A stretch of 64,000 nucleotides of DNA from assembly GCA_903832855.1 (NCBI GenBank), contig CAILDB010000017.1, forward strand, positions 4,992 to 68,991. The letters are read 5' to 3'. Source of the stretch: an uncultured bacterium (GTDB taxonomy: Bacteria; Patescibacteriota; Minisyncoccia; Phycocordibacterales; GWA1-40-21). Position numbers and translations under genes: made by a program. Positions within the stretch are counted from its first letter, which is position 1, and every line of letters starts with the position of its first letter. Of the stretch, positions 495-52,770 are shown one piece after another. Under the pieces are notes generated by a model. It did not search any database, was not told the origin of the DNA, and was given only the letters and a program-made list of their open reading frames with translations.

Positions 495-562
495 CTGTCA
501 TTCCCGTGAAGACAGGAATCCATCCCCTCTGTCTTTGCGAGGGTATTCCCGAAGCAATCCAG
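495..562. repeat. two hairpin repeat units
   Basis: ctgtcattcccgtgaagacaggaatccatc + ccctctgtctttgcgagggtattcccgaagcaatccag. Confidence 0.7.
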
Positions 563-625
563 AAATTTGATTACCTCACCTTTTTTTGCTAAACTATACT
601 TATTACTAAATTAAATAAAAAAACC

Positions 626-859
626 ATGGGCTTTTTCAAAAATCTTATATTAAAAACAACACTGAAGTCACAACTCAAAGGTCTTCCACCTGCACAACAA
701 GAAATGGTTCTAAAAGCTATCGAGGAAAATCCAGAATTTTTTGAAATGATTGCAAAAGAAATCGAGCAAAGACAAAAAGAAGGTAAAGACAAAATGTCCG
801 CAACTATGGAAGTAATGCGAAAACATCAAGGCGAACTTCAAAAGTTGATGATGAAATAA
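626..859 (+). CDS. hypothetical small protein
   Basis: 77-aa ORF, charged and helical, no recognisable family. Confidence 0.3.
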   Translation: MGFFKNLILKTTLKSQLKGLPPAQQEMVLKAIEENPEFFEMIAKEIEQRQKEGKDKMSATMEVMRKHQGELQKLMMK

Positions 860-871
860 TTCATTACAAAT

Positions 872-1183
872 ATGAATGAAAAGCTTTCAACAGAAACAAC
901 AAATGAAAGTGAGGATGAGCGCGAAGAGCGTCTAGTTCATACATTGCATTATCGAATGCGTTTTCAGCATTTGGTCTTTGAAATTCTCAATGTAAATAAA
1001 AATCTTGATGTAAATACGAGGATGGATGTAATAAAAAAATATAGCAAAATGATAAGTGATTATATTGATAATCCTATTAATAATCACATCCGAAAATTAA
1101 TATCAGATGAAAAATTTTCCGACGCTGCCGAAATTATGGTTGCTGAAATCCACCACCAGGAGTCCTGGCCAAAAGCCGCCTAA
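872..1183 (+). CDS. hypothetical protein
   Basis: 103-aa ORF directly after the previous ORF; no motif recognised. Confidence 0.3.
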   Translation: MNEKLSTETTNESEDEREERLVHTLHYRMRFQHLVFEILNVNKNLDVNTRMDVIKKYSKMISDYIDNPINNHIRKLISDEKFSDAAEIMVAEIHHQESWPKAA

Positions 1184-1216
1184 AATTTTACTTTTATCTA
1201 TTTTCGTATTAAAAAA

Positions 1217-1262
1217 GCGCGTGAGACCAGTGTTAGCTTTCGCTCTCACAGATACTCACGCG
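1217..1262. terminator. stem-loop between convergent genes (gcgcgtgag...ctcacgcgc)
   Basis: 9-bp GC-rich inverted repeat closing about 28 nt, lying between the 3' ends of the 872..1183 (+) and 1284..1892 (-) ORFs. Confidence 0.3.
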
Positions 1263-1283
1263 CCTCATACTCTCACTTTTTCT

Positions 1284-12270: not shown

Positions 12271-12271
12271 A

Positions 12272-17006: not shown

Positions 17007-17159
17007 TCTGTCATTGCGAATGCGAAGCATGAAGCAATCCAGAGTTTTTTTAGTGTTTTAGATTGCTTCGGAATACCTCGCAAAGACATAAAAGATGGAT
17101 CCCGTTCTTCAACGGGATGACCCCAGTAGTAAAGAACTCAGAAGTTCTTACTACGGGGC
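17007..17159. repeat. array of hairpin repeat units upstream of dnaK
   Basis: Four units: ctctgtcattgcgaatgcgaagcatgaagcaatccag; gattgcttcggaatacctcgcaaagac; gatggatcccgttcttcaacgggatgac; ccccagtagtaaagaactcagaagttcttactacgggg. Confidence 0.7.
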
Positions 17160-23120: not shown

Positions 23121-23150
23121 CTGTCATTCCTGCGAAGGCAGGAATCCAGG
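23121..23150. repeat. hairpin repeat unit (ctgtcattcctgcgaaggcaggaatccag)
   Basis: Member of the window-wide family. Confidence 0.7.
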
Positions 23151-25281: not shown

Positions 25282-25349
25282 TGTCTTTGCGAGCGGAGCG
25301 AAGCAATCCAGTATAATAGATTGCTTCGGGATTACCCTCGCAAAGACAG
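25282..25349. repeat. composite palindromic hairpin-repeat element filling the aspS-HIT intergenic
   Basis: gtctttgcgagcggagcgaagcaatccag tataatag attgcttcgggattaccctcgcaaagacag. Confidence 0.7.
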
Positions 25350-28626: not shown

Positions 28627-28695
28627 TCTGTCATTCCTGCGAAGGCAAGAATCCAGAGAATCGGGGATGGATCCCGGCCTGCGCCGGGATGACAG
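28627..28695. repeat. two tandem hairpin repeat units
   Basis: tctgtcattcctgcgaaggcaagaatccagag + gatggatcccggcctgcgccgggatgacag. Confidence 0.7.
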
Positions 28696-28981: not shown

Positions 28982-29010
28982 CTGGATTCCCGTATTCACG
29001 GGAATGACAG
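28982..29010. repeat. hairpin repeat unit in the mraY 5' leader (ctggattcccgtattcacgggaatgacag)
   Basis: 11 nt upstream of the mraY ATG. Confidence 0.7.
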
Positions 29011-35980: not shown

Positions 35981-36179
35981 CTGTCATTCCGTTGGAGAAC
36001 GGAATCCATCCCCTCCGTCATTGCGAGTGAAATGTGAGGAAGCAAAAGTATTTGCTTCTGCAAGACTCATTGAGGGCTTTTGTGAGCAAAGCGAAACAAA
36101 AGACCCAATGAGTGGACAGTTTCTGTAAGAAAGCAATCCAGAGAATCAAAGATGGATCCCGGCCTCCGCCGGGATGACA
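35981..36179. repeat. cluster of hairpin units including one split by a ~100-bp nested insertion
   Basis: ctgtcattccgttggagaacggaatccatcc; ccgtcattgcgag[~100 bp]gaaagcaatccagag; gatggatcccggcctccgccgggatgacac. Confidence 0.65.
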
Positions 36180-36188: not shown

Positions 36189-36668
36189 TCATTTCAATCC
36201 TGCACAACCAGAAGCCGGGGTCAAACCTTTGGCTCTAGCTTCTTCTACAGTATTTAAATAAACTTTGTTCTCTTCTTTTATACGAGCGACACCAGAACAC
36301 CAAGTGTAATAATATTTTGTACCAGATTTTGAAGCAACGATACTTCCCTTCTCTGTCACAGTAGTTTGGGATGCTTGAGTCGAAGCAGACTGGATTCCCG
36401 TATTCACGGGAATGACAGATGTGGAGGAAGTTGGATCAATGCCGTTCCACTTATAATATTCCTCCGTCTTTGTCACCGTGATTGGCTCTTTTTGCTTTTC
36501 ATAAGTTGAAAGTCTGCCTAGTGCAAAGGCCAAAGTAGCGGTAAGTAAAAAAACTGCCAAAATAAAAACAACTTCAGGCATTTTGTTCATATCAAAATAG
36601 CTTTTTGCCCTATCAACAAAGTATTTCTTTTGCCACTTGATTTTTTCTTTTAAATCGTTTATACTCAT
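36189..36668 (-). CDS. membrane-anchored protein with a C-terminal domain weakly resembling the Ada N-terminal Zn-binding fold; carries an in-frame hairpin-repeat insertion
   Basis: TM near the N-terminus; C-terminal YYYTWCSGVARIKEENKVYLNTVEEARAKGLTPASGC vs Ada CRPSCRARHALRENVSFYANASEALAAGFRPCKRC; repeat-encoded SVIPVNTGIQ. Confidence 0.45.
   Translation of the reverse strand: MSINDLKEKIKWQKKYFVDRAKSYFDMNKMPEVVFILAVFLLTATLAFALGRLSTYEKQKEPITVTKTEEYYKWNGIDPTSSTSVIPVNTGIQSASTQASQTTVTEKGSIVASKSGTKYYYTWCSGVARIKEENKVYLNTVEEARAKGLTPASGCAGLK
36389..36417. repeat. hairpin repeat unit inside the 36189..36668 CDS
   Basis: ctggattcccgtattcacgggaatgacag; translated in frame as SVIPVNTGIQ on the minus strand. 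Confidence 0.7.
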
Positions 36669-37778: not shown

Positions 37779-37787
37779 TTCAGAGCC

Positions 37788-37822: not shown

Positions 37823-37828
37823 GTCCTC

Positions 37829-37896
37829 TCTGTCATTCCGTTGAAGAACGGAATCCAAAGAATCAGGGATGGATCCCGGCCTACGCCGGGATGACA
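37829..37896. repeat. two tandem hairpin units
   Basis: tctgtcattccgttgaagaacggaatccaaag + gatggatcccggcctacgccgggatgacat. Confidence 0.7.
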
Positions 37897-37906
37897 TTCA
37901 GAAATG

Positions 37907-39190: not shown

Positions 39191-39209
39191 AATCTACTAC
39201 GGGGTCAAA

Positions 39210-39566
39210 CTAAAGTGCGAGTTTTTTCAAAAGAAGATTGAAAAGTGCATAGAAGGCCTGCTGGGTCTCTGTCTGACTTTTGGCATTAGTAAAGTTTGTC
39301 CAAGAGGTGAAAATATCTTTGTCATTTAAGGCCCGGACAGAATTTTCCAATTGCAATCTATCATCAAAAGAAACCACAGATGACCCCTGAAGGACCTTCG
39401 TCATAAAAAGCTCCGTGAAAGATAAAACATTTTTATTTATTTGCTGTTTTTGAGTTGCGTCTGCTAAAGCTCGTGTATTTTTCAAATACATATAAGCAAA
39501 AAACGCATTGCTAATGACAAGCGCGACGAGCAACACGGCTACCAAAATTTTAGATTTATTTTGCAT
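39210..39566 (-). CDS. hypothetical membrane-anchored protein
   Basis: Start taken at MQNKSKILVAVLLVALV; the upstream extension MRGSSIKK is encoded by a hairpin repeat unit. Confidence 0.4.
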   Translation of the reverse strand: MQNKSKILVAVLLVALVISNAFFAYMYLKNTRALADATQKQQINKNVLSFTELFMTKVLQGSSVVSFDDRLQLENSVRALNDKDIFTSWTNFTNAKSQTETQQAFYALFNLLLKKLAL

Positions 39567-39576
39567 TTTTTTAATA

Positions 39577-39606
39577 CTGGATCCCCGCATTCGCGAGGAT
39601 GACAGA
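39577..39606. repeat. hairpin repeat unit (ctggatccccgcattcgcgaggatgacag)
   Basis: Sits between the stop of the giant gene and the start of the 39210 gene. Confidence 0.7.
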
Positions 39607-39610
39607 GTAA

Positions 39611-42600
39611 TTATACCAATAATTTATCTTTTTTACCACGACGAATAGTAAAAATAAATATAAGATAAATGAGTGCAAGAAAGATTCCGCCGAGCAAAAT
39701 CGTCTGAAAATTAAGCAACCCTAGCAAGCTTGTCTTCGCTTTGAGTTCAATATTGATAAACACACCTTTACCTTCATCCACTTTAAATGGAGCGCCCACA
39801 TAATCAGAGTATGAGTTTGAAATAACTTTGAGCTTGTATGTGCCGACTGGAACAAGGAAAGCATATCTTCCCGTCACATCTGTCGTCTGTGGATTTTGTT
39901 GTCTAAAGTCACTTGACGGCCAGAGTTCATAAGCATTTGTCGCAGGATTTAACCAATCAATAGAAACCAAAGCATTGCTAATGCGTGTCTCCTCTCCATT
40001 ATTTATTTTGTAAACATACCCCTCCGGATCCACAACCACCACCATACTGATTGTTTTTGGTGCAATGTTTGCTTTGTAATTTATAATAGTCCTAAGTTCA
40101 TATGTTCCCAGAGCAAGAGGTGATGCAACTTCCGCAGTCCAAACACCATTTCCGGAATCAATATAATTAAATTTATTTAAAACGAGATCGGTTTGGCTGG
40201 TTGGATAACTACCAACTGTTGTGCCAGAAATTGTCGGGTTATTTTCCATTGCAAAGGCAACGGAAGCGGTCTGAGAAAGACTGGATTGCTTCGCCTTGCT
40301 CGCAATGACAGAAGAAGAAACAGAAGAGACAGAACTGGATTTAAATATCATATAACCCTGCACCGTGCTTGCCTTCCCTTCTGGCTTCACAACAAATTTA
40401 AGTGGCTGACCCTGAATAGTATTGAGAGTTTGTAGAGCAAGCCCAGCGTCTGTAACTGGTAATCCAACAGTATTCACACTCTTTAAATTAATTCCTGCAT
40501 TTGCAATTGATAATTTGACACCCAAATCAATACTTCCATCTGCTGTCTGTGCAAAAATCACATCCGTCGGTATTTGATTAATTTGTTTTTGTGAAAAGTT
40601 TGTCACTGCCACACTTTGTCCTTTTTGCAAACCGGCTATTTCAGAAAGTCCCGGCAATGAAATATTTCCTACGCCACTAAGTTGCGAAACATCACTCATT
40701 TTAGTAATGCCAATTTTTTGTAAAGTTGTAGCAACCACTGGAAATTTATTTACAATGTTTTGAAAATCACTTGGCAGACCTTCAAAAACAAAATTATTTA
40801 TATTATTTGCTATAACTGTCGGCCATTTATTCTGAAATGCAACAGGAGTAACTTGTGGGACAGATTGTGTGATAGGAGGATATGTTACATTCTCATCTTG
40901 ACCTTGTGGTATGACATTTGTAATAATTTTGGTTATTGTGTCTGTTATTGTATTTGTCACTTGTCCTGTCACAGCTTTCGTATTATCTATAACTTCAGTA
41001 ATAAGTGGCACAGCATTTAAAGTAATATTTTGTGAATAAGCAGGAGTCGCTACACCAGAAGGTGAAAGAAATTTTGTGTAAATTGTGTAATTTGCATCAG
41101 GGCAAACAGATTGTCCTTGGCAAAGATTATATTGATAAGTAGAGGTGACATATGGGATGGTCGTAATGTTTGAAAAGTCAGGATTTGTGGACACCACAAC
41201 TGCAGAAGCAGTCCCATATGGGTTTGCAGAGAATTGCAAATTAACCACTCTTTGATCTGTTGAGCCAGCTCCGTTATTTATTGAAAAGGAATATGTTGAA
41301 GTAGCGACTGGTGTAGATGAACCACCTCCCTTACTAACACTGCCATGATGAACGGCTGGAATAGTATATGTCAAATGTGTCGCAGTTCCTGAAGTATCTT
41401 TATTTCCATAAGCATCTTCACAGGCCAAATAAATATTCTTTGTTCCGGCACCTCCAAGGTCAGGTGATGTGCAAGAAATCAAAATGCTATCAGTTACAGA
41501 ACAGCTCGTGTCCCCTGACATCCCGTCATATGATTTTGCTGTAGCACTAGGCGAATATGCCAAACGACAATCCCCTGCTTCACTTAGTGTAAATGTAACA
41601 ACTTGATTATTTGAAATTCTTGAACCATCTACTGGAAGAATATTTGAAATAGTTGGCGCAACAGTTGACCATGTTAGATTGAAAGTGCTTGAAGCAGAGT
41701 TGCTAGCGAGATCAGTAGTAGTGAGAGCAATAACATATGCTCCGTCATCAGTGCCGGCTGATATTGTGGTACTTACGGCAGTGGCTGAACCAAAATTAAT
41801 TGTTCCTGGGCCAGAAACTTTTGACCACAAGTAACTTGCAATACCACTTCCACCATCAGTCGCAGAACCTGTTTGTGTAAATGTCGCTTTCTTGGACTGG
41901 TCTGCACCGGCACTTACAGAAGGCGCCGTCGTATCCCAAGTCAAATTAAATGTGCTTGAAGCGGAATTGCCGGCGAGATCTGTAGCTGTAAGAGAGATGA
42001 GATATGCTCCATCTTGATTTGCTGAAATATTTACGGTCGGCAAAGTTGTGGAACTAAAACTAACTGCTCCCGGTCCAGAAAGTTTGGACCACAAATAGCT
42101 TGCTACTTCGGAAGTAATGTCCGTAGCGGAACCTGTCTGAGAAAATAGTGCATTTTTGACCTTGTCTGCTCCTGCACTGACACTTGGCACGGTATTATCT
42201 ACAGTCACTGTAATAATAGACGAGGTCGCCTGATTTCCTGTACCATCTCGTGCGACAGCAGTGATCTCGTGATTTCCATCGTCAAGAGATGTGGTATCTA
42301 AAGTCGTAGTGTAAGGCGCAATTAGATCTTCTCCACCGATATTTGTACTCCCATCCAGTTTAAATTGAACTCCAGAAACAGATACATCATCAACGGCATT
42401 TGCCGAAACAGTCACAGAATTTCCTCTGACTTTTGCATTATTAGCCGGAGCTGTTACGGAAACCGTTGGAGCTGTAATATCTGCTTGCACAGTGAAAGAT
42501 ATTGTAAATTCGTCACTATTGACATTGCCCACTGCATCACTGCACTTGACATAATATAGATAGGAACCGCCGTTTGAAAGTTCGGAAATAATTGAAGAGT

Positions 42601-45600
42601 GCGTCGTTGTGGCTGTTGTGGTACTAAATAATGTCATACTTGCATATGAAATATTTGTAGCAGAATATTTACAAGTTGCTGGTTCATTTGTAGTCAAAGA
42701 TATCGTGGTTGAAGAAGTATTTAATGCAAGTGTTCCACCTGGTGCTCCACCCGAGCGAACCGGCGGGGAAATATCAATGAGCATAGAAGCAGAGCAAGAA
42801 GAAGTGGCTTGATTGGTTGCCGTATCAATACTTACAATTTTGTATGAATATGTGAGAGCGTCATTTCCGGTAAAATCTCTCGTCTGCAAAGAGTTTGACG
42901 CGAGGTCAATCATACTACCAGATATAGTGTCGCAAGTAGCACCCGTGTAAAATAGAATTTTTTGGTCGGCTAAGTCACCCGAATTGGACTTCGTCCACGA
43001 AGCAGTAACCGCAGTAGTACTAGCTGGAGATGTTTGGGACCAAACAAGAGATGTCGCAGTATTTGGAGCAGTCGTATCCAAAATAAAGTTACCCATACTT
43101 GTCCAAGATGAAGTGGCGACGCCATCATTGTTTTGAGCACACCAATAATATGTGGCATCACTTCCGATAGATGAGCTAGGTGTCCAAGTAGTAGTGGCGT
43201 TGTTAGAAGCAGTTTCTGCAGATGTACCACTATCTACAACCGTGCCACCTGTACAATTTACTGCACTTGATGCAATTCTATAATTAGTAGTACCTACATC
43301 AGCAGTATCTGGGTCAGAATAAATGGCTGATAAAGTGGGCGTGGTGTCTGTGGTATATGAAGCGGTCGTAGGCGAAACCAAAGTCGGAGCATTTGGTGCA
43401 GTGTTAAAATTCCAGTTTGTGTTATTGCCTCCGTTTGTGGAATTGGTTTGGGAAATTAAAGTTCCGCCCGAGGCGTTGGAATAAGCGGCGTTAACATAGC
43501 TGGCCGAGGCAGTGCCGGCGACATTTAGATACCAAGCACTTGCCGGATTCAAAGTCAGTAAAGCTCCGCTGTGTCCCGATGCCGAGAAATTTCCGCCGAC
43601 GGTGATGGTGCTGCCGATGAAGCCGGAGGCGGTCACATTGGCGACGGTGGCGGTGCCAGTATAGTTTGTGTCTGGTGCATAAGAACCCGAAATTGTAGCC
43701 GGAAAACCTCCTGACTTCCACCAGTCGTTACCCGTTGCCACTCCCGGAACCGGAGTAATAATAAATGATAAAGTATCATTTGATACATACCAGTTATCAC
43801 TTCCCCGACGATACTCTGGAATACCATTTCTTAACCCCACATAAGTATACGTCCCTATCGCGTTAGGGTTTAGCGTTCCGCTCACCGTCACTTGGTTATA
43901 ATAAGTGCCGGAAGTATTAGCCAGTCCCGAAGCGGTAATTAAAGCGCCGTCAGAGATGGTGAGATTTCTGGCGCCTGTGGTAGTGATGTTTTTCCCGCCG
44001 GCAGAAAGTGTCCCTGCTGTTACTGCAACGCTCCCCGATGCCACCAAATTATCCTGCAAAGTCCACGCTCCACCCGTCCCATTAAATGTCAGATTATTAA
44101 ATTTAGAATTCGTCGCCCCGCTCGTAATTGTTTTTCCTGTTGCAGTTGAATTAAAAATCACCGTAGAATTATCCGCCACAAACTGCGAAGGTGCGGTGCC
44201 TGTGCCGTAGTTTAGCCAGTTACCGCCGACGGTAACAGTGGAAGTTCTTCCACCTGCCCCCGTGGCGTCCAATTTCTTGAGGGCGGTGTCAGCCCCAACG
44301 CCAATGGTAATGTTACCGCCGATGGTGAGATTATAGCCGTCGGTTTTATAACCAAGTGCTCTTCCTGCTCCACCAGAAATAAAATACATGGATTTTGTTG
44401 TATTAAGGGTAACATTACCAGTTTGAGTTAATATCCCTCCGGGGACATCCACATAGATATCACTACTATAACCATTTACGAGTGCTGGAATTGATTGTGA
44501 TGCAGTTTGTCCATAAAAATAAAGCGACGGTACAGATAGTGTAGAAGCCGCATCAAAACTTAACGGAGTTGCTCCTTTCAAATACATATTACCCGATCCA
44601 GTCAGGATACCAGAACCAATCGTTACATTTGATATTATGCAAATATGTGAAGCCAAAGTTACTGTGTTACCACTTTGTCCAACTGTAAGATTATTAAATC
44701 CGTTATCCCAATAAGTTGGATTATTCCCATACGTCAGCGTATTCGTCCCATTCAGTACTAAGCTCGCCGAGTTGTATTGCGTGGAATCCAGTGTCCCATT
44801 CGCCGTAAATGTCCCATTGCCATTGACGGTGATGGTAGCGGTGCTGGCATTGAAGCGTGAAGTGATAGATGACTGGTCAAAGTTGCCCGATGATAATGTA
44901 ACTTTTGATGCACCTGTTGCCGTTACCACTCCGCCTGCCCCGACTGTCAGTCCTGCGGTAGTCCATCCAGTGTTCCCTGAAATGCCGATAGTGGTAGTGG
45001 CTCCGGTGACAGTAGAAGAACCAGTAACTGTGAGGTCGTTTGTTCCTATTGCAAATGTTCCACCTGAGACCGAGAGATTTCCTCCGACAGATATTGCAGT
45101 CGAGTTTGTAAACGAACCGCCATCTTGAGTGTAATTACCGGAAAGTGTAAATGTTCCGCCAGAAATTGTGCTGTGATTGATAACACTGCCAGTAAATGTT
45201 CCGCCAGAAATAGTGCCGTTATTTGTAACAGTCCCCGCAGAGCAAGTGCCAGATGACGGATAAGTGGCTAAACTGGCCGGGATTTCCGCTGTATAACTGG
45301 CGCTTCCGCAAGGATAACTGCCTGTCCAGTTGGCTCTGTTGGTCAAAACGCCATCTGCTGAACCGTTCCATGTACCATTGCCATCACCAAGTGTCTGCCC
45401 TTCCGAGCCAGCGCCGTTGTTGTAAAGAGTTAAAACATCATCAGCACTTAGGGCGGTGTTGTATATACGGACATCGTCAATGGAGCCAGTGAACCGATAC
45501 AAATTTTTACCTCCAACATATAAATTAGAATTTGAAATCATTTGGCTACTTGGCTGTGCAGCAGTAGCCGTTCCAGAAGGAGTGCCATCAATATAGAACC

Positions 45601-48600
45601 TCATCATATCCGCGTTTGTAGTCCCATTCCACGCAACTGTTATTAGATGCCATCCAGTAGATGTGATTGAATCGCTTGAGAAGTTGTCAATGCTACCGAA
45701 CACACCAGCATTAAATCCAAAGTATATTTTATTATTAGACCATAATCCAAAATCAAAATCGGATTCACCATTATACGTGGCCTCAGCTTTTGATAAGACA
45801 GCACCTAAATGACCCAAGCTTGCAGGATTAACCCAAACTGATAAAGTTAATGCCTTTCCAATCATATTGAGGGAATCCGAGTTTGCCACCACAACCTTAT
45901 CCCCCGTCCCATTAAAACTCATCGCCTTGCCTATTTTCGCAGTAGCCAAAAGGTCTGTGTTTCGTTGAGCTGTTCCTGTGTGTCCGCCAATGCTGTCTGC
46001 CACAGTCGTATTTGTTGAATCATCATTCATCTTGTAATGAGCCACAAGACCAGTTCCCAAAGCCCCTGCTTCACTTTCTGTCCCTGCTCCACTGGCGTAA
46101 AGTGCGTCAATAGCTGTTTGGTCTAAGGCGGTGTTGTAGATACGGACATCATCGATGGAGCCGGGGAAATAATCACCACCAGGGTTTGTTGCACGACCAA
46201 TGGTAAAATTCGCGGCATTAACAATATTCCCGGCAGTATCTACGACTGTGCCACTGCTTATCCCATTAATATAAAACTTGTATAATCCTCCAGTTCTAAC
46301 AAGCGTCACATAATTCCAAGCATTTTTAGTGACCACACTCGTACTATAGCCATAAGGGTTGAAAGTTCCATCATAAGTTTCTACATACAATTGGTTTCCT
46401 CCTCCTGCATTTATATAAGCGAATATGTATCCTGTACCGCCTGATGTAGAAATAATTGCTCTTTTGTATACATCTGCATCAACACTAGGTTTAATCCAAG
46501 CCGATAAAGAAAAATCCCCTGTCCCAAATTGCAAAGAAGAAGGATTCCCAGCATCCACATAATCACTCGTCCCATTAAAACTCAAAGCACTGCCGATTTT
46601 TGAGGTAGTCATAATAGAAGTGTTTGTCGCCGATGTTCCTGTATTTGAACCAACGCTATCTGCAACAACAAGCGAAGCTGCGTCATCATTCATTGTGTAA
46701 TGAGCCACAAGACCGCTCCCCAAATTCGCCGGAGTTAAATAGCGGACAATCACGATACCGGAACCGCCGTTTCCGCCAGGAAAACCATTCCACATTCCGC
46801 CGCCGCCGCCGCCCGTGTTGGGAGTGCCAGCCGTCCCGCCATAATCTCCTCCTGCTCCGCCCCCGCCGAGTCCTCCGCTACCGGGAGTCGTTTGCCCTGC
46901 ACCGCCGCCACCGCCTCCGTATACGGCAGATATGCCGGACAATTGATTGGACATCCCTGCTCCGCCGTTGCCACCGACTTGGGACGTGCTTGCAGTATCT
47001 CCGTTGGTAGATGCCCCACCACCGCCGCCGCCTTTCTGTGCATAATTGTTGTTTCCGCCAGCAAAACCCTGCCCATTTGTTGCACTGCCACCAACCGTGT
47101 TGCCGCCCCACGACCCACCAGCTCCACCACCCGAACCTCCTGGAAATCCGTTACCATTCTTTCCACCCGCACCACCCCCAAAGGCAGTAAGACCCGCAAA
47201 AACAGAGTTGGAACCGTCGCTCGCGTCTACGGGACTACTTAGCCAGCCCCTTCCCCCTGCGCCGACAATAACTGGATATTCTCCCGTCACCGCCAAACTG
47301 CCTGTCAGTACCCCGCCTCCACCACCGCCTCCTACACTACCTCCACCGCCACCCGCCACCACCAACACATCAGCAGAAGTAACTCCTGTTGGCAGAGTTA
47401 ATGTTGTAGTTCCAACAGTTGTATATGTACAAACAGTGTAAAGCGGGTCGTCGGGCGCGGTAGCGCAAACCGGGTCAACAATATAGTCAATGTCTACGTT
47501 GCCTGAGATTTTTAAATCAAAAACATCTGTGGGAGTTTGTAAATTTTGTAAAAGTATTCGGTATTTGCCGTCTTCAGAAATATTTTCAAAAGTTGGATTT
47601 GTGCCGTCGGAAACTGTTTCCAGCATTTGACCTTGGGTTTGATTTCCATCTTCATCGGTATAAACAGGATAAACCTCAACACTTGCTGATTGACCATTAT
47701 TTGTTGATTTTGCGTAAACCGTAATATCTTTTGTCTCATCCAAAATCTTTTGGAAAGTAACACGAACATAGTTTCCATTTGGTACAGTGGCATAATCTTT
47801 GTCTTGTGTTGCAACTATGTCATAAATATCATTAATAATTTCTTTGTTTTGGTCTAACTCAAAGGCTTTTGAAATAAAGATAATTTCAAAAGTTTGTGTT
47901 GAGAGGTGCGGGACAGTCCATTCTACATAGTCCAGTTTGCCATTGCTGTTGAGGTCATAGGCGTGGAATGTAACATTCTGGTCGCCATTATTTGTCCATT
48001 TAATTTTGATTTTTGATTCTTGACCTACTTTGTAAATTTCGGGGATGTTGGTAAAGGCGAGGACATTGGTGAGGTGCTCGGGTCCCGAGGTTGCCGAGGG
48101 ACCAGCTATTTCTGGTGCAGAAACCTGAACTATTTTTCCTGTGTCTGTGTTTGCTTCTGCAATAGTTGGAGCTGGGGTTTCGTATGATACAAGGACGGTG
48201 GAAGATGAAACGGATTCGGAAGGAGTTGAAGAGGACTGGATTGCTTCGCTTGTGCTCGCAATGACAGAAGAAGAAACAGAGGAAGTCGAAGAGGGATGGA
48301 TCCCGACCTCCGTCGGGATGACAGAATCAGAAGAGGAAGCAGAGGAAGTCCCCGCTCCCGTATTGTCATTCCGTTGAAGAACGGAATCCATCCCCGATTC
48401 CTGTGATGATGTTGCAGATGAAGTAGAAACAAATGAAGAGATATCGAGATTTAGAATTGGGAGTGATGTGGCCTGCCCCGTTAGAAGTAGGCTACTTGTA
48501 GCCGTTAGTTCTAATGGGGTGGAGGAAAATTGATCTGTAGAAGAAGATGGGGAGGACTGGATTCCTGCCTCCGCAGGAATGACAGAGGAGTCCTTGTCCT

Positions 48601-49270
48601 TCTTTTCTGTCTTGTCTGCTTTTTCTACTTTATCTTTTTTGTTTGAATCCTTTGATAAAGTGTCGGAGGACTGGATTGCTTCGTCTTCACTCGCAATGAC
48701 GGAAGAGTCGGGTATCTGCGTACTGAGGTCTATGATGACAGTATCGGGAGCTTGGTCACCTGAAAGTGCTTCGTCAACAGTTGCAAACATTTTTCCCATT
48801 TTTGAAAAGATATTTTGAAAGAAAGCAAAAAAACCTTTTGCATTTTTTTGCTTGATTGATTTTGCAAGTGCAAGAGATGCTGATGAGCTGGCTCTCTGAC
48901 TCGCGAGTTCTGATAATTTTATTCTGTCTGCGTTTGTGAGATTCCCCGACTTGGACATGGCATGTCCAAGTGCAGTGGTTGTGGAAATTTTTACATTATC
49001 TGCAACTTTCGGAATTACTAAAAGATGCTGATTTGAATTTATGCTAACTGTCTTTACCCATTTTATTGGCTCTCCGGGGACTGACGGAAGCTGACTTGTA
49101 ATAGTGCCTTTGACGAGAGCAACATTATTATCTTGAGAATTATTTGAAAGGCTTGAAAAATCAGATATCTTGTAGACAGCAAAAATCAAAGCCACCAATA
49201 CCACAGCGACACCCAAAACCACTAGAGTTTTTTTGAGACCAGATTTTTTATAAATTTCCTCTTGCTCCAT
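39611..49270 (-). CDS. giant (3219 aa) cell-surface protein
   Basis: Single 9.66-kb ORF with TM anchors at both ends. In N-to-C order: Ser-rich linker carrying hairpin-repeat insertions; Gly-rich domain; two laminin-G/ConA-like domains (DDVRIYNTAL x2); beta-helix-like T/S/G/N-rich region; Ig-like domains; two tandem PKD domains (SAGADQ...SYLWSK.SGPG); CarboxypepD_reg-like domain. Confidence 0.85.
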   Translation of the reverse strand: MEQEEIYKKSGLKKTLVVLGVAVVLVALIFAVYKISDFSSLSNNSQDNNVALVKGTITSQLPSVPGEPIKWVKTVSINSNQHLLVIPKVADNVKISTTTALGHAMSKSGNLTNADRIKLSELASQRASSSASLALAKSIKQKNAKGFFAFFQNIFSKMGKMFATVDEALSGDQAPDTVIIDLSTQIPDSSVIASEDEAIQSSDTLSKDSNKKDKVEKADKTEKKDKDSSVIPAEAGIQSSPSSSTDQFSSTPLELTATSSLLLTGQATSLPILNLDISSFVSTSSATSSQESGMDSVLQRNDNTGAGTSSASSSDSVIPTEVGIHPSSTSSVSSSVIASTSEAIQSSSTPSESVSSSTVLVSYETPAPTIAEANTDTGKIVQVSAPEIAGPSATSGPEHLTNVLAFTNIPEIYKVGQESKIKIKWTNNGDQNVTFHAYDLNSNGKLDYVEWTVPHLSTQTFEIIFISKAFELDQNKEIINDIYDIVATQDKDYATVPNGNYVRVTFQKILDETKDITVYAKSTNNGQSASVEVYPVYTDEDGNQTQGQMLETVSDGTNPTFENISEDGKYRILLQNLQTPTDVFDLKISGNVDIDYIVDPVCATAPDDPLYTVCTYTTVGTTTLTLPTGVTSADVLVVAGGGGGSVGGGGGGGVLTGSLAVTGEYPVIVGAGGRGWLSSPVDASDGSNSVFAGLTAFGGGAGGKNGNGFPGGSGGGAGGSWGGNTVGGSATNGQGFAGGNNNYAQKGGGGGGASTNGDTASTSQVGGNGGAGMSNQLSGISAVYGGGGGGAGQTTPGSGGLGGGGAGGDYGGTAGTPNTGGGGGGMWNGFPGGNGGSGIVIVRYLTPANLGSGLVAHYTMNDDAASLVVADSVGSNTGTSATNTSIMTTSKIGSALSFNGTSDYVDAGNPSSLQFGTGDFSLSAWIKPSVDADVYKRAIISTSGGTGYIFAYINAGGGNQLYVETYDGTFNPYGYSTSVVTKNAWNYVTLVRTGGLYKFYINGISSGTVVDTAGNIVNAANFTIGRATNPGGDYFPGSIDDVRIYNTALDQTAIDALYASGAGTESEAGALGTGLVAHYKMNDDSTNTTVADSIGGHTGTAQRNTDLLATAKIGKAMSFNGTGDKVVVANSDSLNMIGKALTLSVWVNPASLGHLGAVLSKAEATYNGESDFDFGLWSNNKIYFGFNAGVFGSIDNFSSDSITSTGWHLITVAWNGTTNADMMRFYIDGTPSGTATAAQPSSQMISNSNLYVGGKNLYRFTGSIDDVRIYNTALSADDVLTLYNNGAGSEGQTLGDGNGTWNGSADGVLTNRANWTGSYPCGSASYTAEIPASLATYPSSGTCSAGTVTNNGTISGGTFTGSVINHSTISGGTFTLSGNYTQDGGSFTNSTAISVGGNLSVSGGTFAIGTNDLTVTGSSTVTGATTTIGISGNTGWTTAGLTVGAGGVVTATGASKVTLSSGNFDQSSITSRFNASTATITVNGNGTFTANGTLDSTQYNSASLVLNGTNTLTYGNNPTYWDNGFNNLTVGQSGNTVTLASHICIISNVTIGSGILTGSGNMYLKGATPLSFDAASTLSVPSLYFYGQTASQSIPALVNGYSSDIYVDVPGGILTQTGNVTLNTTKSMYFISGGAGRALGYKTDGYNLTIGGNITIGVGADTALKKLDATGAGGRTSTVTVGGNWLNYGTGTAPSQFVADNSTVIFNSTATGKTITSGATNSKFNNLTFNGTGGAWTLQDNLVASGSVAVTAGTLSAGGKNITTTGARNLTISDGALITASGLANTSGTYYNQVTVSGTLNPNAIGTYTYVGLRNGIPEYRRGSDNWYVSNDTLSFIITPVPGVATGNDWWKSGGFPATISGSYAPDTNYTGTATVANVTASGFIGSTITVGGNFSASGHSGALLTLNPASAWYLNVAGTASASYVNAAYSNASGGTLISQTNSTNGGNNTNWNFNTAPNAPTLVSPTTASYTTDTTPTLSAIYSDPDTADVGTTNYRIASSAVNCTGGTVVDSGTSAETASNNATTTWTPSSSIGSDATYYWCAQNNDGVATSSWTSMGNFILDTTAPNTATSLVWSQTSPASTTAVTASWTKSNSGDLADQKILFYTGATCDTISGSMIDLASNSLQTRDFTGNDALTYSYKIVSIDTATNQATSSCSASMLIDISPPVRSGGAPGGTLALNTSSTTISLTTNEPATCKYSATNISYASMTLFSTTTATTTHSSIISELSNGGSYLYYVKCSDAVGNVNSDEFTISFTVQADITAPTVSVTAPANNAKVRGNSVTVSANAVDDVSVSGVQFKLDGSTNIGGEDLIAPYTTTLDTTSLDDGNHEITAVARDGTGNQATSSIITVTVDNTVPSVSAGADKVKNALFSQTGSATDITSEVASYLWSKLSGPGAVSFSSTTLPTVNISANQDGAYLISLTATDLAGNSASSTFNLTWDTTAPSVSAGADQSKKATFTQTGSATDGGSGIASYLWSKVSGPGTINFGSATAVSTTISAGTDDGAYVIALTTTDLASNSASSTFNLTWSTVAPTISNILPVDGSRISNNQVVTFTLSEAGDCRLAYSPSATAKSYDGMSGDTSCSVTDSILISCTSPDLGGAGTKNIYLACEDAYGNKDTSGTATHLTYTIPAVHHGSVSKGGGSSTPVATSTYSFSINNGAGSTDQRVVNLQFSANPYGTASAVVVSTNPDFSNITTIPYVTSTYQYNLCQGQSVCPDANYTIYTKFLSPSGVATPAYSQNITLNAVPLITEVIDNTKAVTGQVTNTITDTITKIITNVIPQGQDENVTYPPITQSVPQVTPVAFQNKWPTVIANNINNFVFEGLPSDFQNIVNKFPVVATTLQKIGITKMSDVSQLSGVGNISLPGLSEIAGLQKGQSVAVTNFSQKQINQIPTDVIFAQTADGSIDLGVKLSIANAGINLKSVNTVGLPVTDAGLALQTLNTIQGQPLKFVVKPEGKASTVQGYMIFKSSSVSSVSSSVIASKAKQSSLSQTASVAFAMENNPTISGTTVGSYPTSQTDLVLNKFNYIDSGNGVWTAEVASPLALGTYELRTIINYKANIAPKTISMVVVVDPEGYVYKINNGEETRISNALVSIDWLNPATNAYELWPSSDFRQQNPQTTDVTGRYAFLVPVGTYKLKVISNSYSDYVGAPFKVDEGKGVFINIELKAKTSLLGLLNFQTILLGGIFLALIYLIFIFTIRRGKKDKLLV
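40281..40312. repeat. hairpin repeat unit inside the giant gene (C-terminal region)
   Basis: ctggattgcttcgccttgctcgcaatgacag, giving SVIASKAKQS in frame. Confidence 0.7.
48236..48395. repeat. array of four hairpin units inside the giant gene N-terminal linker
   Basis: Encodes SVIASTSEAIQ, SVIPTEVGIH and, in inverse orientation, MDSVLQRND, all in frame. Confidence 0.7.
48557..48585. repeat. hairpin unit inside the giant gene
   Basis: ctggattcctgcctccgcaggaatgacag, giving SVIPAEAGIQ. Confidence 0.7.
48671..48700. repeat. hairpin unit inside the giant gene
   Basis: ctggattgcttcgtcttcactcgcaatgac, giving SVIASEDEAIQ. Confidence 0.7.
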
Positions 49271-49415
49271 TTTTGTATGCTTCTATTTTATAAAGAAATA
49301 AACAGCAAGTCAACCATTTTTTACCAAATTTACCCCTAAGTAATTATCCACAGTTTTTTCGCTTGACAATGTTCCGAGGTTTGCTATACTTGCACTATCA
49401 CGACGAAAGAGGTTC

Positions 49416-49943
49416 TCAAAGGGTTCCATCCCGACGAGAGCCTTTTTCATTTATATATTCTATTTTATTCTTCTGTTCAGAAACAAAGGTAAGTATATTA
49501 TTGTCAACACTACCTAACTTTTTGAATAAAGCTGAATAATTTTTATTTGGGACAAGTAATTGTTCTAATTTATTATTTTTTATCAAATATTCAACTAAGC
49601 AGTAAAAATCTCCATCTCCAGAGACAATAACCGCTTTATCAAAATTATTAAACTCAATCATTGTGTGCAAAACTAACTCGGCATCAACATTACCTTTAAC
49701 CTTCCCATTTAATAATTCTAAAGTCGGTTTAAAAACACAGATGTAACCAGCATCTTGGAGAAATGAATATAAAGATTCGTTACCTAGTTTGTATCCAATA
49801 AATAAATACGCTTTTGAAACAGAATATTTATCTTTCATGAAGATCCTTAGTTTTCTCCAATCAATTTTCCAACCCAAAGATTTAATTCCTAGGTTAAGAT
49901 TTTGACTATCTATAAAAGCATAATTATTTTCTTTCGATTTCAT
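49416..49943 (-). CDS. NYN-domain (LabA-like, PIN-like) putative ribonuclease
   Basis: AFIDSQNL ... KAYLFIG ... IVSGDGDFYCLVEYL conserved acidic motifs of the NYN fold. Confidence 0.65.
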   Translation of the reverse strand: MKSKENNYAFIDSQNLNLGIKSLGWKIDWRKLRIFMKDKYSVSKAYLFIGYKLGNESLYSFLQDAGYICVFKPTLELLNGKVKGNVDAELVLHTMIEFNNFDKAVIVSGDGDFYCLVEYLIKNNKLEQLLVPNKNYSALFKKLGSVDNNILTFVSEQKNKIEYINEKGSRRDGTL

Positions 49944-50032
49944 AATTGTATTCTACCAAAGTGTTATCAAAAAACCAAACTTGGACTTGTGGAAATTATA
50001 TTAAATAGATATAATTAGAGCAATAGAAAAAT

Positions 50033-50947
50033 ATGCAAAGTAAATATAGCTACAAAAATATCACATGGACGGATTCTTTGTGTCCAACGACGCAGGAAGT
50101 GGAATTATTGATGACAGAATACAAGCTCCATCCGAAAGTCGCAAGAGATCTGGCTTTGCCGACATATAAGGATCGGGTTACTTTATATGACAATTATATT
50201 TATTTAATTTTGCACTTCCCTGCCATCAGACATTCTCACGGCGATGATATTTCTCAAGAAATTGATTTTATTATTGGCAAAAATTTTATAATTACAAATA
50301 GATACGAGATGATAGATGTGCTGGAACAATTTGCAAAAGAATTTGAAGTGAATAGTATTTTGGAAAAAAGATTGATGAAGGACCACGCTGGATATGTTTT
50401 TTATTATATTATGAAGGATTTGTATATGTCTTTGTCTGATGAGCTTGAGTCACTCGGTGATCAAATAAAAGAGGTGGAAGGAAATATTTTTAATGGAAAA
50501 GAAAAAGAAATGGTTGGCGATATTTCAAAAATAAGTAGAGACCTGATGAATTTTGAACACACTATTAAAACACACAAAAATGTTTTAGAAACATTTGAAG
50601 GTTATAGTAAGAAATTTTTCAAAGATGATTTCGCTGAAAATGTAAGAAAACTTATAGACGAATATGAAAAAATTAATACCATTCTCGGTGATGAAATTGA
50701 TTCAATGAAAGAAATGCGAGATACAAATGACTCACTTCTTTCATCCAAACAAAACGAAATAATGAAAATTCTCACAATTTTTACCGTTTTTGCACTTCCC
50801 TTTTCTATCATCACTGGTTTTTTCCAAATGAATACTAGGCTGACTCCAATTGTAAATAATCCATATGCATGGCCTCTTATTGTGGGTGTTGAAATCATTA
50901 TTACTGTCTCGCTGTTTCTCCTCGCTAAAAATAAAAAATGGTTTTAA
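50033..50947 (+). CDS. corA: CorA-family divalent-cation transporter
   Basis: Cytoplasmic helical domain plus two C-terminal TM helices linked by GFFQMN (a variant of the GMN motif). Confidence 0.7.
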   Translation: MQSKYSYKNITWTDSLCPTTQEVELLMTEYKLHPKVARDLALPTYKDRVTLYDNYIYLILHFPAIRHSHGDDISQEIDFIIGKNFIITNRYEMIDVLEQFAKEFEVNSILEKRLMKDHAGYVFYYIMKDLYMSLSDELESLGDQIKEVEGNIFNGKEKEMVGDISKISRDLMNFEHTIKTHKNVLETFEGYSKKFFKDDFAENVRKLIDEYEKINTILGDEIDSMKEMRDTNDSLLSSKQNEIMKILTIFTVFALPFSIITGFFQMNTRLTPIVNNPYAWPLIVGVEIIITVSLFLLAKNKKWF

Positions 50948-50978
50948 ATTAACCCTTTAAAGTTTTTACTGATACATT

Positions 50979-51233
50979 ATGCAATATGTCTATGTGTTAC
51001 AAAGTAAAATGGATGGTGGTTTATACACTGGTTGCACGAATAACTTGAAAAGTAGGTTCATATTGCATAATGCGAAAAAAGTTGATTCTACTGCAAAACG
51101 AACTCCATTTGTGCTAATATACTATGAAGCATACATAAATAGTCACGATGCATATAACCGCGAGAAGTATATGAAGACACAATATGGCAAGAATTATTTG
51201 AAAAAGGTTTTGTCCAACTTTTTTAATCAGTAA
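50979..51233 (+). CDS. GIY-YIG nuclease-family small protein
   Basis: YVYVLQSKMDGGLYTGCTNNLKSRFILHN is the GIY-YIG core; 84 aa. Confidence 0.7.
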   Translation: MQYVYVLQSKMDGGLYTGCTNNLKSRFILHNAKKVDSTAKRTPFVLIYYEAYINSHDAYNREKYMKTQYGKNYLKKVLSNFFNQ

Positions 51234-51249
51234 AAATTTTTTAGGGTAA

Positions 51250-52770
51250 ATGTTTAACTTTCTCAAATCTAAAAAAGTTGTCTTTCTCTATAATACTCTT
51301 TCCAGAAAAAAAGAGGTTTTTAGACCTATTAAAAAAGGTCAGGTGAAATTTTATCAATGTGGACCGACAGTTTATTGGACTCAACATATTGGCAACATGC
51401 GTGCATTTGTTTTGTCTGATTTTATGCGTCGTTCTCTTTCATATCTTGGATACAAAGTAACTTTTATAAGAAATTATACTGATGTCGGACATCTGACTTC
51501 CGATAGTGATGTGGGCGAAGACAAAATGGAAAAAGCCGTAAAAAGAGAAGGTGGAAGTCCAAAGGAAATTGCCGATAAATACACAAAGATTTTTGAAAGT
51601 GATACAAATGATTTGAATATTTTAGAGCCGGATTTCAAACCTCGTGCTACAGAATTTGTTGCAGATATTATTGATTCAGTTGGAATTTTAATTAAAAAAG
51701 GATTCGCCTACCCTACCGATCTTGCAATTTATTTTGATATTTCAAAAGCAAAAGATTACACCAAACTTTCCGGACAAAATCTGGAAGAAAATAAAAGTGG
51801 CGCAGGAAATGCTGAAGTTGAAGATAAACAGAAAAGAAATCCTGCCGATTTTGCTCTGTGGTTTTTCAAAGCAGGAAAGCACGCAAATGCTTTGCAATTT
51901 TGGCCATCACCTTTTACTTCTTCACTTGTTAAAAACGGCGAAGGTTTCCCTGGCTGGCACATAGAATGTTCTGTAATGGTCAAAAAACTTCTTGGAAATA
52001 CGATAGATATTCATATGGGCGGAGTAGAACACATTCCTGTTCATCACACAAATGAAATAGCTCAAAGCGAAGCACTCAATGGTGTTACTTTTGTAAATTA
52101 TTGGCTACATAATGAATGGCTTATGGCAGATGGCGGAAAAATATCTAAATCAGTTGGCACAGCATTTAGTTTATCCGATTTGAAGGAAAAAAGTTTTAAT
52201 CCTCTGGTCTTGCGATATTTCTTTATGCAGGCACATTATCGTTCCAAACAAAACTTTACTTGGGAGGCACTTGAAGGTGCGAGGAACGGTTACGAACATT
52301 TGATAAATCAAATCTCTGTCATTGCGAGCAAAGCGAAGCAATCCAGTCTTCTTCTGTCATCCCGGCGCAGGCCGGGATCCATCTCCTCCTCTGTCATTGC
52401 GAGTGAAACGAAGCAATCCATCGGCCATACTGACCCCACTTTCAAAACCAAATTTTCTAAAATAATCGGTGATGACTTTGGTATTTCCCAAGCACTCGCA
52501 CTTCTTCAGGAAGTCTTGAAATCAGACATTCCAAAAGAAAATAAACTTGCGACTATTTACGATTTTGATAAAGTTCTTGGACTGGATTTACAAAAGGCCG
52601 CCGAACTTTCTGAAAATATTCCCGACGAAATCATAAAACTTGCAGAAGAAAGAAAACTCGCCCGCTCCGACAAAAACTGGTCAAAATCCGACGAACTCCG
52701 CGACAAAATAGCATCTCTTGGTTATGAAATCAAAGATTCTTCTGCTGGATACGAAATTTCTAAAAAGTAG
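51250..52770 (+). CDS. cysS: cysteinyl-tRNA synthetase (with a 39-aa repeat-derived in-frame insertion)
   Basis: YQCGPTVYWTQHIGNMR (HIGH) and KISKSVG (KMSKS); 506 aa including the SVIASKAKQSSLLLSSRRRPGSISSSVIASETKQSI insert. Confidence 0.9.
   Translation: MFNFLKSKKVVFLYNTLSRKKEVFRPIKKGQVKFYQCGPTVYWTQHIGNMRAFVLSDFMRRSLSYLGYKVTFIRNYTDVGHLTSDSDVGEDKMEKAVKREGGSPKEIADKYTKIFESDTNDLNILEPDFKPRATEFVADIIDSVGILIKKGFAYPTDLAIYFDISKAKDYTKLSGQNLEENKSGAGNAEVEDKQKRNPADFALWFFKAGKHANALQFWPSPFTSSLVKNGEGFPGWHIECSVMVKKLLGNTIDIHMGGVEHIPVHHTNEIAQSEALNGVTFVNYWLHNEWLMADGGKISKSVGTAFSLSDLKEKSFNPLVLRYFFMQAHYRSKQNFTWEALEGARNGYEHLINQISVIASKAKQSSLLLSSRRRPGSISSSVIASETKQSIGHTDPTFKTKFSKIIGDDFGISQALALLQEVLKSDIPKENKLATIYDFDKVLGLDLQKAAELSENIPDEIIKLAEERKLARSDKNWSKSDELRDKIASLGYEIKDSSAGYEISKK
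52314..52430. repeat. three tandem hairpin units inside cysS
   Basis: ctctgtcattgcgagcaaagcgaagcaatccag + tcttcttctgtcatcccggcgcaggccgggatccatc + tcctcctctgtcattgcgagtgaaacgaagcaatccatc. Confidence 0.75.

Follow-up and report, generated by a model that had tools for sequence, protein, structure and literature searches.

Hairpin repeats of the CGTC-1 family in a Patescibacteria genome and a GIY-YIG nuclease gene as their candidate partner

Palindromic DNA elements that sit in frame in protein-coding genes of small, host-associated genomes were reportedly described in Rickettsia by Ogata et al. in 2000 as Rickettsia palindromic elements (RPE). Classical RPE-1 measures about 100-150 bp. In this study, we analyzed hairpin units of 27-33 nucleotides (nt) in a 64,000-nt stretch of contig CAILDB010000017.1 from an uncultured Patescibacteria bacterium (this whole stretch is called the window), and we compared them with the families of tagged hairpins that they most resemble.

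The closest described family is CGTC-1, which belongs to the CGTC-tagged repetitive extragenic palindromes (REP). It is defined by an 8-bp stem with AT at its start, a loop of 4 nt, a tail that reads CCA and a tag that reads CGTC or, often, TGTC (Di Nocera, De Gregorio & Rocco 2013, BMC Genomics 14:522; PMC3733652; all statements on this survey refer to the available parts of the article). The survey equates CGTC-1 with dRS3 of Neisseria and with RPE-6 of Rickettsia conorii, and it equates RPE-4 with CGTC-4. Its Additional file 3 gives the peptides encoded by intragenic CGTC-1 copies (VIPAKAGI, SFPRKRES, CHSRESGNP, DSRFRGND, WIPAFAGMT, SSRRRPGS and DPGLRRDD), and the genes that harbor them include those of glycyl- and isoleucyl-tRNA synthetase.

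About half of the dRS3 copies represent a longer, oriented motif, NTS (CGTCATTCCCGCGMAVGCGGGAATCYRG), and NTS-like Ssn-related motifs (SRM) are found in many phyla (Chenal et al. 2025, Nat Commun 16:2388; PMC11893778). According to the same study, SsnA is a single-domain GIY-YIG protein of 94 aa (CDD cd10448), which binds the hairpin only as single-stranded DNA (ssDNA) and only on the tagged strand; its cut falls a few nucleotides 5' of the hairpin. Cleavage is controlled by the tag, with its three bases ahead of the palindrome, and binding by the stem and the C that follows it. Double-stranded DNA and RNA are not substrates. Neisseria Ssn restricts incoming transforming ssDNA. The authors of the study speculate that the arrangement SRM-ssn-SRM is a domesticated element resembling an insertion sequence (IS) that stands behind repeat expansion, and they note that SRM-rich genomes mostly belong to symbionts (PMC11893778).

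We consider it likely, with a probability of roughly three in four, that the units in the window are members of CGTC-1 in a Patescibacteria host and are paired with a small GIY-YIG protein encoded nearby. Thus, the host lineage is new, and the system is already described. What is new here is the Patescibacteria host, the density of the units and a bipartite variant of the hairpin.

Hairpin units and their family

The pattern TGTCAT-N12-22-ATCCA matched exactly 20 times in the window, whereas 0.37 +/- 0.58 matches were expected from dinucleotide-preserving shuffles, none of which reached 20. Looser scans and reading of the loci by hand raised the count to 27 units, or about 0.4 units per kb (Table 1). 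They were sorted into 16 units of type A, seven of type B and four of type C.

Type A units follow the consensus YTC-TGTC-AT[TC]CCnnn-GNAK-nnnGG[AG]AT-CCA[GT], with an 8-bp stem and a tetraloop (GAAG, GCAG, GGAG, GTAG or GAAT). The tag is TGTC in 15 of the 16 and GGTC in the remaining one; stem pairs 1 and 2 are A-T and T-A throughout, and C28, C29 and A30 of the 3' tail are invariant (alignment A8). Type B has the form TGTCATTGC-GA-inner hairpin-GAA-GCAATCCA and type C the form TGTCTTTGC-GA-GGGTAATCCC-GAA-GCAATCY. Both forms have the head, the first stem pairs and the tail of type A, with TGTC or CGTC as the tag, but their stem is bipartite: its outer part, [AT]TTGC/GCAAT, is separated by an internal GA/GAA loop from an inner hairpin that varies (GC/GC, GT/AC, ATGC/GCAT or GGG/CCC). 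This is exactly the layout that minimum-energy folds return. Each unit is oriented by its unpaired 5' tag YTC-TGTC, its AT-initial stem and its unpaired 3' tail CCA(G/T).

Folded as DNA, type A gave -8.2 and -9.7 kcal/mol, with z about -4. Across the 16 type A units, 98.4% of the stem cells were paired, and four of the eight pairs carried changes on both sides. Pairing fell to 37-56% once the partner column was slid by one, and none of 500 shuffles reached the observed covariation score. These pairing and covariation statistics show that the repeat family and its selected hairpin are real. They also bear out the initial annotation, which had described at least 20 copies in a common frame with complementary arms; a unit was present at each of the 15 positions it listed.

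The arrays in both orientations that had been reported were found as well. They consist of two or three units, and the densest group has five units within 465 nt (48237-48701). Tail-to-tail pairs are formed at 28629/28668, 37831/37870 and 25282/25317, and head-to-tail groups at 496/530 and 52317-52420; the only head-to-head pair is 48297/48364. Tandem Repeats Finder did not detect the arrays, the units being too divergent and interleaved with spacers. An origin from a curated RNA family or from tRNA was rejected, as Rfam at gathering thresholds and ARAGORN returned nothing across the window.

In the type B unit at 36016-36140, the loop is enlarged by about 95 nt of nested hairpins (GAAGCAAA-AGTA-TTTGCTTC; CTCATTGAGGGCTTTTGT ... 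ACAAAAGACCCAATGAG), which surround a second B core, GAGCAAAGCGAA, as if one unit had been inserted into another. A 247-bp element (28709-28955), in which two inverted, near-perfect arms of about 62 bp each (28709-28770 and 28898-28955) enclose a 127-nt core, is flanked by hairpin units at 28629/28668 on the left and 28983 on the right. It is MITE-like (resembling a miniature inverted-repeat transposable element) or possibly a structured RNA gene.

The assignment to CGTC-1 rests on several likenesses. Type A has the tag, stem, loop and tail of the family, it is dispersed as single, paired and grouped copies, and some copies lie in frame within genes, among them a tRNA synthetase gene, as in the survey (PMC3733652). 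Translation of window units yielded the same peptides that are tabulated there for Rickettsia, Sphingomonas and Coxiella (VIPAKAGI, SSRRRPGS, DPGLRRDD and WIPAFAGMT), and two peptides known from R. conorii, VIPAKAGI and WIPAFTGMT, are likewise matched by window units in translation. Furthermore, the published SRM search string HGTCWYN(0-2)YYVSBRHN(0-5)WNVSBRGN(0-2)RNCYNB had six matches in the window and 0.13 in shuffles (maximum 2 in 100), an approximately 46-fold excess. The unit at 28983 shares 24 of 28 positions with the NTS consensus, and the bases critical for Ssn (GTC preceding the stem, C following it) form invariant columns of the type A alignment.

The type A pattern, with 22 specified bases, was detected in at least 120 loci (one genome per species), while about one is expected by arithmetic. 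Among the matches listed are Pseudomonadota, Nitrospirota, Planctomycetota, Verrucomicrobiota, Cyanobacteria, Chloroflexota, Bacteroidota, Bdellovibrionota, Myxococcota, Elusimicrobiota, Omnitrophota, Cloacimonadota, Legionella, Rickettsiales, several Patescibacteria and Saccharibacteria, and one Nanoarchaeota metagenome-assembled genome (MAG). In 10 of the 120 loci listed, B-like units accompany A units, in other phyla. The initial annotation had named a lack of further copies elsewhere as a refuting result; the outcome was the opposite, with copies in many phyla, and the proposal of an undescribed system gives way to type A as CGTC-1, equivalent to dRS3, RPE-6 and NTS/SRM. The nearest homologues of the window's cysteinyl-tRNA synthetase (CysRS) and GIY-YIG protein carry the names Paceibacterota, Patescibacteria group, Falkowbacteria, Taylorbacteria and Pacebacteria, which place the organism in the Patescibacteria.

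Three further observations concern the distribution of type A. The pattern was present in 59 viral or proviral IMG/VR contigs (L132-L190), several of them with two or three copies. The Nanoarchaeota archaeon MAG (L006, JAHIPG010000372.1) has one exact match on a 3.8-kb contig binned as DPANN, which could be genuine or a binning error. In Flavobacteriaceae bacterium GF1 (AP035880.1; L014 6901-8000), four type A units with a period of about 300 bp (6901, 7200, 7501 and 7802) lie beside a GIY-YIG fragment (7833-8000), and this array may consist of tandem modules of a unit plus a nuclease gene.

The units also differ from the described families. The CGTC families of the survey span five phyla, and Patescibacteria are not named among them in its available parts; pairs are mostly tail-to-tail or head-to-tail here, whereas head-to-head pairs predominate there, which is an organizational tendency and not a sequence criterion (PMC3733652). 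The conserved tag extends to YTCTGTC, and the bipartite B/C stem, found in 11 of the 27 units, lacks the 4-nt-loop feature. With NTS/SRM, the units share a near-identical hairpin with oriented flanks, the presence of a small single-domain GIY-YIG gene with units at most 5 kb away on both sides, and clustering at a large gene for a surface protein, which parallels the position of NTS clusters in Neisseria (PMC11893778). In contrast to NTS, of which 2% are intragenic in N. meningitidis (PMC11893778), about 37% of the units are intragenic here; moreover, the local GIY-YIG protein, known here from its gene, belongs to a divergent Patescibacteria clade and is not bracketed by units.

Units inside genes and a syntenic relative without units

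Ten of the 27 units lie in credible genes: six in the gene of a giant protein of 3219 aa, three in the CysRS gene cysS and one in an open reading frame (ORF) of 159 aa. Such copies had been described as always read in the S-V-I frame or its inverse and as never introducing stops. The frame (S)VIxxxxx(I/A)(Q/H)S is used by eight of the ten and the antisense reading DSVLQRND by one, but the second of the three cysS units uses yet another frame, LSSRRRPGS, and "always" does not hold. The lack of stops says little, since 121 of 156 unit-by-frame combinations are open anyway; the only frame that is regularly closed is the one that reads ATGAC as TGA.

The three units in cysS add 29 aa (87 nt) to the linker before the anticodon-binding domain. 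This segment is an insertion: all 18 other aligned CysRS lack it, including the closest orthologues (477 aa; 78% identity in the alignment). In the AlphaFold model of CysRS (mean pLDDT 84), the values drop to 52 and 43 in the insert between blocks of 90 and 92, and the insert is predicted to be a low-confidence loop between well-modeled domains. An identical CysRS of 506 aa is encoded on 56 contigs, showing that the insertion is fixed in the population. A 461-aa member of the CysRS cluster was considered as an insert-free allele and rejected, as it is merely truncated at a contig end.

The same linker carries unrelated inserts in five other Patescibacteria orthologues. Among the orthologues considered in alignment A3 (P0108, P0105, P0094, P0119, P0084 and P0101), some linker inserts look repeat-derived, for example PSFAKASEGK, PLTPLYRGELG and LPALPTGQAGRAG, and P0101 has a Cys-rich insert of 50 aa in its catalytic domain. 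In another Patescibacteria genome, the gene of the NAD-dependent DNA ligase contains a B-like unit, GTCATTGCGAGCGGAGCGTGGCAAACCAG (L129 17627-17655, L130 14740-14768), which is read as SLRAERGKP.

For comparison, we used contig ERZ27247363 k141_1348458 from another metagenome, which is syntenic with the window at 9.5-63 kb and 66-83% identical to it at the nucleotide level (about 75%). According to k-mer counts, none of the units' signature words occurs in 41 kb of this relative. The cluster at 35966-36188 takes up 223 nt in the window and about 0 nt in the relative, the stretch 37503-37910 takes up 408 nt versus 12 nt, the unit in ORF 36189..36668 faces a gap of 30 nt, and the 87 extra nt of cysS are absent. 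In agreement with the initial annotation, the clusters are thus lineage-specific insertions, and the lack of units in 41 kb together with the discrete gaps shows that the units expanded after these two genomes, at about 75% identity, had diverged. A target-site duplication was not visible at the junctions, which are blurred at this identity.

For cysS and ORF 36189..36668, the units are both in frame and absent from orthologues, which is how RPE behave. The comparison with RPE that had been drawn therefore stands with respect to translated in-frame insertions in genes of a small host-associated genome by selfish-looking palindromes. It does not stand as a mere analogy, since RPE-6 belongs to the family of type A in the equation given by the survey (PMC3733652) and the likeness is then one of literal membership rather than convergence. 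The units differ from classical RPE-1 in their length of 27-33 nt and in their unrelated sequence.

The alignment with the relative revealed additional differences. A 10.8-kb block (39191-50026) encodes a 126-aa ORF, the 3219-aa surface protein (Big, Laminin_G and PKD domains) and an NYN-domain protein and contains seven of the 27 units. The relative lacks this block, and corA directly follows an S41 protease gene there. At 55071-56090, a RhuM-family gene lies between dnaB and a VTT-domain gene; the relative has a SIMPL-domain gene at this place, which represents a local gene replacement. Positions 23155-23236 (L125 16837-16964) are 92.7% identical to the relative, whereas the flanking genes are about 75-80% identical. 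This stretch is located upstream of a class II aminoacyl-tRNA synthetase gene (23879..25276) and contains GAGGTGGCACCGCG, which resembles a T-box sequence; the Rfam T-box match has 18.4 bits (E 0.16), far under the threshold. The hairpin CCCGTCAAAATTTTTTAAAACAAAATTTTCTTCGGG occurs twice in the relative.

A candidate GIY-YIG partner and its cassette

The 84-aa ORF between corA and cysS matched Pfam GIY-YIG (E = 5e-14, residues 2-72) and is the only such candidate in the window. Residues Y5, Y16, G18, R26, H30 and E62 are invariant in the GIY-YIG alignment, with conservation of the catalytic residues Tyr, Tyr, Arg and Glu. The gene has units within 5 kb on either side: those at 48237-48701 begin 2.3-2.7 kb upstream, and those at 52317-52420 are 1.1 kb downstream. 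GIY-YIG homologues were found in six of the 120 loci listed from other phyla. At L110, L018, L027 and L028, a homologue of 95-97 aa stands within 5-35 nt of two inverted type A units, which corresponds to the published SRM-ssn-SRM layout. The window protein aligned with these SRM-bracketed homologues at a pairwise E of 5e-12 and scored 43 bits against them, compared with 21 bits against UPF0213 proteins, no closer relative being present in PDB. NCBIfam gave only a sub-threshold match to a group I intron endonuclease. Judged by these sequence comparisons, the gene is a candidate Ssn-type partner of the units.

A cassette of about 307 bp (50946-51252) encloses the gene. Its imperfect terminal inverted repeats measure about 21-23 bp, and their core pentamers covary (ACCCT/AGGGT, ATCCG/CGGAT and ACCCG/CGGGT). 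The cassette is always oriented like the gene that follows it and adjoins the start codon of that gene (TAA-ATG), which is cysS, dnaJ, a pilB-like gene, T2SSF (twice), a pilin gene or an RNase H-like gene. The relative contains an intact cassette upstream of dnaJ and a deleted remnant between corA and cysS. Thus, the cassette occupies different loci in two genomes of about 75% identity and leaves internally deleted remnants. Two identical intact cassettes and degraded ones are present on one Patescibacteria contig of 733 kb. Between the window and the relative, the GIY-YIG protein is 87% conserved and CysRS 78%. The sequence of the cassette ends has one copy in the window and several in another genome of the Candidate Phyla Radiation (CPR), and these ends might be the nuclease's own cognate repeat. 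The more novel part of the analysis is this small mobile GIY-YIG cassette, along with the contrast to a relative that has no units.

By analogy with Neisseria, the same kind of protein-hairpin pair may be at work in this genome: the GIY-YIG protein would recognize the units, and copying initiated by the nuclease and based on ssDNA would spread them. The units have multiplied recently in this lineage and settled in intergenic spacers, leaders and permissive protein linkers. Inside genes, they persist because five of the six unit frames are normally open and the commonest encodes the short, innocuous peptide (S)VIPxxxGIQ(S).

Several points weigh against this reading. The SRM string is satisfied by six of the 16 type A units and by no B or C unit, the other ten type A units being near misses. 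Identity to the SRM-flanked homologues is only 28-35%. In addition, the gene is not directly flanked by units and has terminal inverted repeats of its own instead. The relative harbors an intact GIY-YIG copy (87% identity) yet has no units in 41 kb, showing that presence of the gene does not predict units, and L131, another Patescibacteria locus with a GIY-YIG gene, has none in 20 kb. Overall, the numbers of units around Patescibacteria GIY-YIG homologues are mixed (27 in 64 kb, 0 in 41 kb, 5 in 40 kb and 0 in 20 kb; these are sampled contigs that do not form a proper control). For these reasons, namely the missing direct flanks, the separate cassette, the unit-free relative that has the gene and the mixed picture at other loci, we only infer the link to the nuclease.

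Table 1. Hairpin units, host genes and GIY-YIG cassettes. Coordinates are those of the window unless a locus is named; "SRM string" refers to the published search string.
Feature	Position	Strand	Remarks
Unit, type A, TGTCATTCCCGTGAAGACAGGAATCCA	496..522	+	intergenic; first of head-to-tail pair
Unit, type C, TGTCTTTGCGAGGGTATTCCCGAAGCAATCCA	530..561	+	
Unit, type B, inner stem ATGC/GCAT	17009..17041	+	upstream of dnaK
Unit, type C	17059..17088	-	
Unit, type A, GGTC head	17096..17122	-	
Unit, type A	23122..23148	+	leader, just 5' of T-box-like conserved motif; orthologous place in relative without unit
Unit, type C/B hybrid	25282..25310	+	with 25317 unit fills 82-nt spacer after class II aminoacyl-tRNA synthetase gene
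Unit, type C	25317..25348	-	tail-to-tail with 25282 unit
Unit, type A	28629..28655	+	
Unit, type A	28668..28694	-	fits SRM string
Unit, type A	28983..29009	-	just upstream of mraY; fits SRM string
Unit, type A	35982..36008	+	first of 223-nt cluster 35966-36188, absent from relative
Unit, type B, CGTC head	36016..36140	+	about 95 nt of nested hairpins in loop
Unit, type A	36153..36179	-	last in cluster 35966-36188
Unit, type A	36391..36417	-	in frame SVIPVNTGIQS in conserved ORF 36189..36668; 30-nt gap opposite in relative; fits SRM string
Unit, type A	37831..37857	+	in 408-nt stretch 37503-37910 (12 nt in relative)
Unit, type A	37870..37896	-	tail-to-tail with 37831 unit; fits SRM string
Unit, type A	39578..39604	-	between 126-aa ORF and 3' end of giant gene; fits SRM string
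Unit, type B	40282..40310	-	in frame SVIASKAKQSS, about aa 2987 of 3219-aa protein
Unit, type B	48237..48266	-	in frame SVIASTSEAIQS, about aa 335 of giant protein
Unit, type A	48297..48323	-	in frame SVIPTEVGIH, about aa 316 of giant protein
Unit, type A	48364..48390	+	antisense to giant gene, read DSVLQRND, about aa 294
Unit, type A	48558..48584	-	in frame SVIPAEAGIQS, about aa 229 of giant protein
Unit, type B, CGTC head	48672..48701	-	in frame SVIASEDEAIQS, about aa 190 of giant protein
Unit, type B	52317..52345	+	in cysS, read SVIASKAKQS
Unit, type A	52355..52381	+	in cysS, other frame LSSRRRPGS; fits SRM string
Unit, type B	52392..52420	+	in cysS, read SVIASETKQS
Conserved 159-aa ORF	36189..36668	-	one unit
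Gene of 3219-aa surface-type protein	39611..49270	-	six units
Gene of 84-aa single-domain GIY-YIG nuclease, candidate Ssn-type partner	50979..51233	+	between corA and cysS
cysS (CysRS, 506 aa)	51250..52770	+	three units; junction peptides at units, e.g. HLINQISVIASK and QSSLLLSSR
Cassette	50946-51252		
Cassette	L125 9968-10273		
Cassette	L122 9858-10001		remnant
Cassette	L131 9979-10271		
Cassette	L128 9979-10271		
Cassette	L128 12047-12339		
Cassette	L129 about 7300-7593		
Cassette	L129 9979-10271		

Alternative explanations and significance

As a more specific possibility, which we regard as doubtful, Patescibacteria may have their own version of the Ssn-hairpin system, in which a family of type A and bipartite B/C units is served by a divergent GIY-YIG protein of 84-89 aa that is itself mobile as the cassette of about 307 bp.

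The units could instead serve the host as RNA or DNA structures, for example as mRNA 3'-end stabilizers, leader attenuators or sites for nucleoid proteins, and their spread would be incidental; such roles can coexist with membership in CGTC-1. Most intergenic copies are indeed located near gene ends between co-directional genes, as in the 82-nt spacer 25277-25358, one unit is part of a leader beside the T-box-like motif, and in the view of Di Nocera et al., many REPs lie just 3' of ORFs and undergo transcription (PMC3733652). We nevertheless consider host service improbable as the explanation. The relative has the same genes in the same order without units, showing that units are dispensable for those genes. 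No T-run follows the hairpins, which are therefore not classical terminators, about 10 of the 27 units lie inside coding sequence, and published Ssn does not act on RNA (PMC11893778).

Still less probable is that the units are REP-type miniature elements moved by a RAYT (the HUH tyrosine transposase that is the partner of GTAG REPs), an IS200/IS605 HUH or an IS110-type enzyme encoded elsewhere in the genome. GTAG REPs and REPINs are likewise short tagged hairpins, often in inverted pairs and thought to act as ssDNA, and recognition of a hairpin plus tag in ssDNA is the IS200/IS605 mode; the window covers 64 kb of the genome. However, the tag is TGTC or CGTC and not GTAG, no transposase and no RAYT, HUH or IS110 gene was found in the window, nor such a gene in 41 kb of the relative, and Di Nocera et al. 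conclude that CGTC REPs have no dedicated transposase (PMC3733652). The units also do not qualify as MITEs, being single hairpins of 27-33 nt without the terminal inverted repeats of a parent IS.

An independent, undescribed selfish family of this kind of genome, similar to RPE by convergence, is very unlikely. In the literature searched, no report links REPs to Patescibacteria; the text of the Ssn paper, its supplementary taxon lists aside, makes no mention of them (PMC11893778), and neither the bipartite B/C form nor the extended YTC-TGTC tag is described in the available parts of the REP and SRM texts. Against a new family stand the recurrence of the 22-base pattern in at least 120 loci of many phyla, the joint occurrence of B-like and A units in 10 of the 120 loci listed, and the presence of all defining CGTC-1 features together with peptides identical to the published ones, RPE-6 itself being CGTC-1. 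Finally, the view that the peptide segments are ancestral, conserved parts of host proteins has nothing in its favor and can hardly be upheld, since the 18 other CysRS lack such segments, as does the DNA of the relative at both intragenic sites compared, which refutes it for cysS and ORF 36189..36668, two of the three host genes.

The reading that we prefer, CGTC-1 units paired with a GIY-YIG protein, extends the SRM/Ssn pairing of repeat and nuclease to the CPR, and about 0.4 units per kb is a high density for such small genomes. The published remark on symbionts among SRM-rich genomes fits these presumed episymbionts. The unit-rich genome and its syntenic, unit-free relative date the expansion, and the essential, single-copy cysS evidently accommodates three units that are read in two frames. 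In genome annotation, the many short CPR "hypothetical proteins" and odd low-complexity inserts should be recognized as repeat-derived when they read VIPxxAGIQ, SSRRRPGS, DPGLRRDD or VIASxxKQS. If, under the doubtful reading of a separate Patescibacteria version of the system, the GIY-YIG nuclease does copy the hairpins, the window with its 27 units in 64 kb and the unit-free relative would be a natural before-and-after pair, which could show how CGTC/SRM repeats spread and enter essential genes of ultra-small episymbionts.

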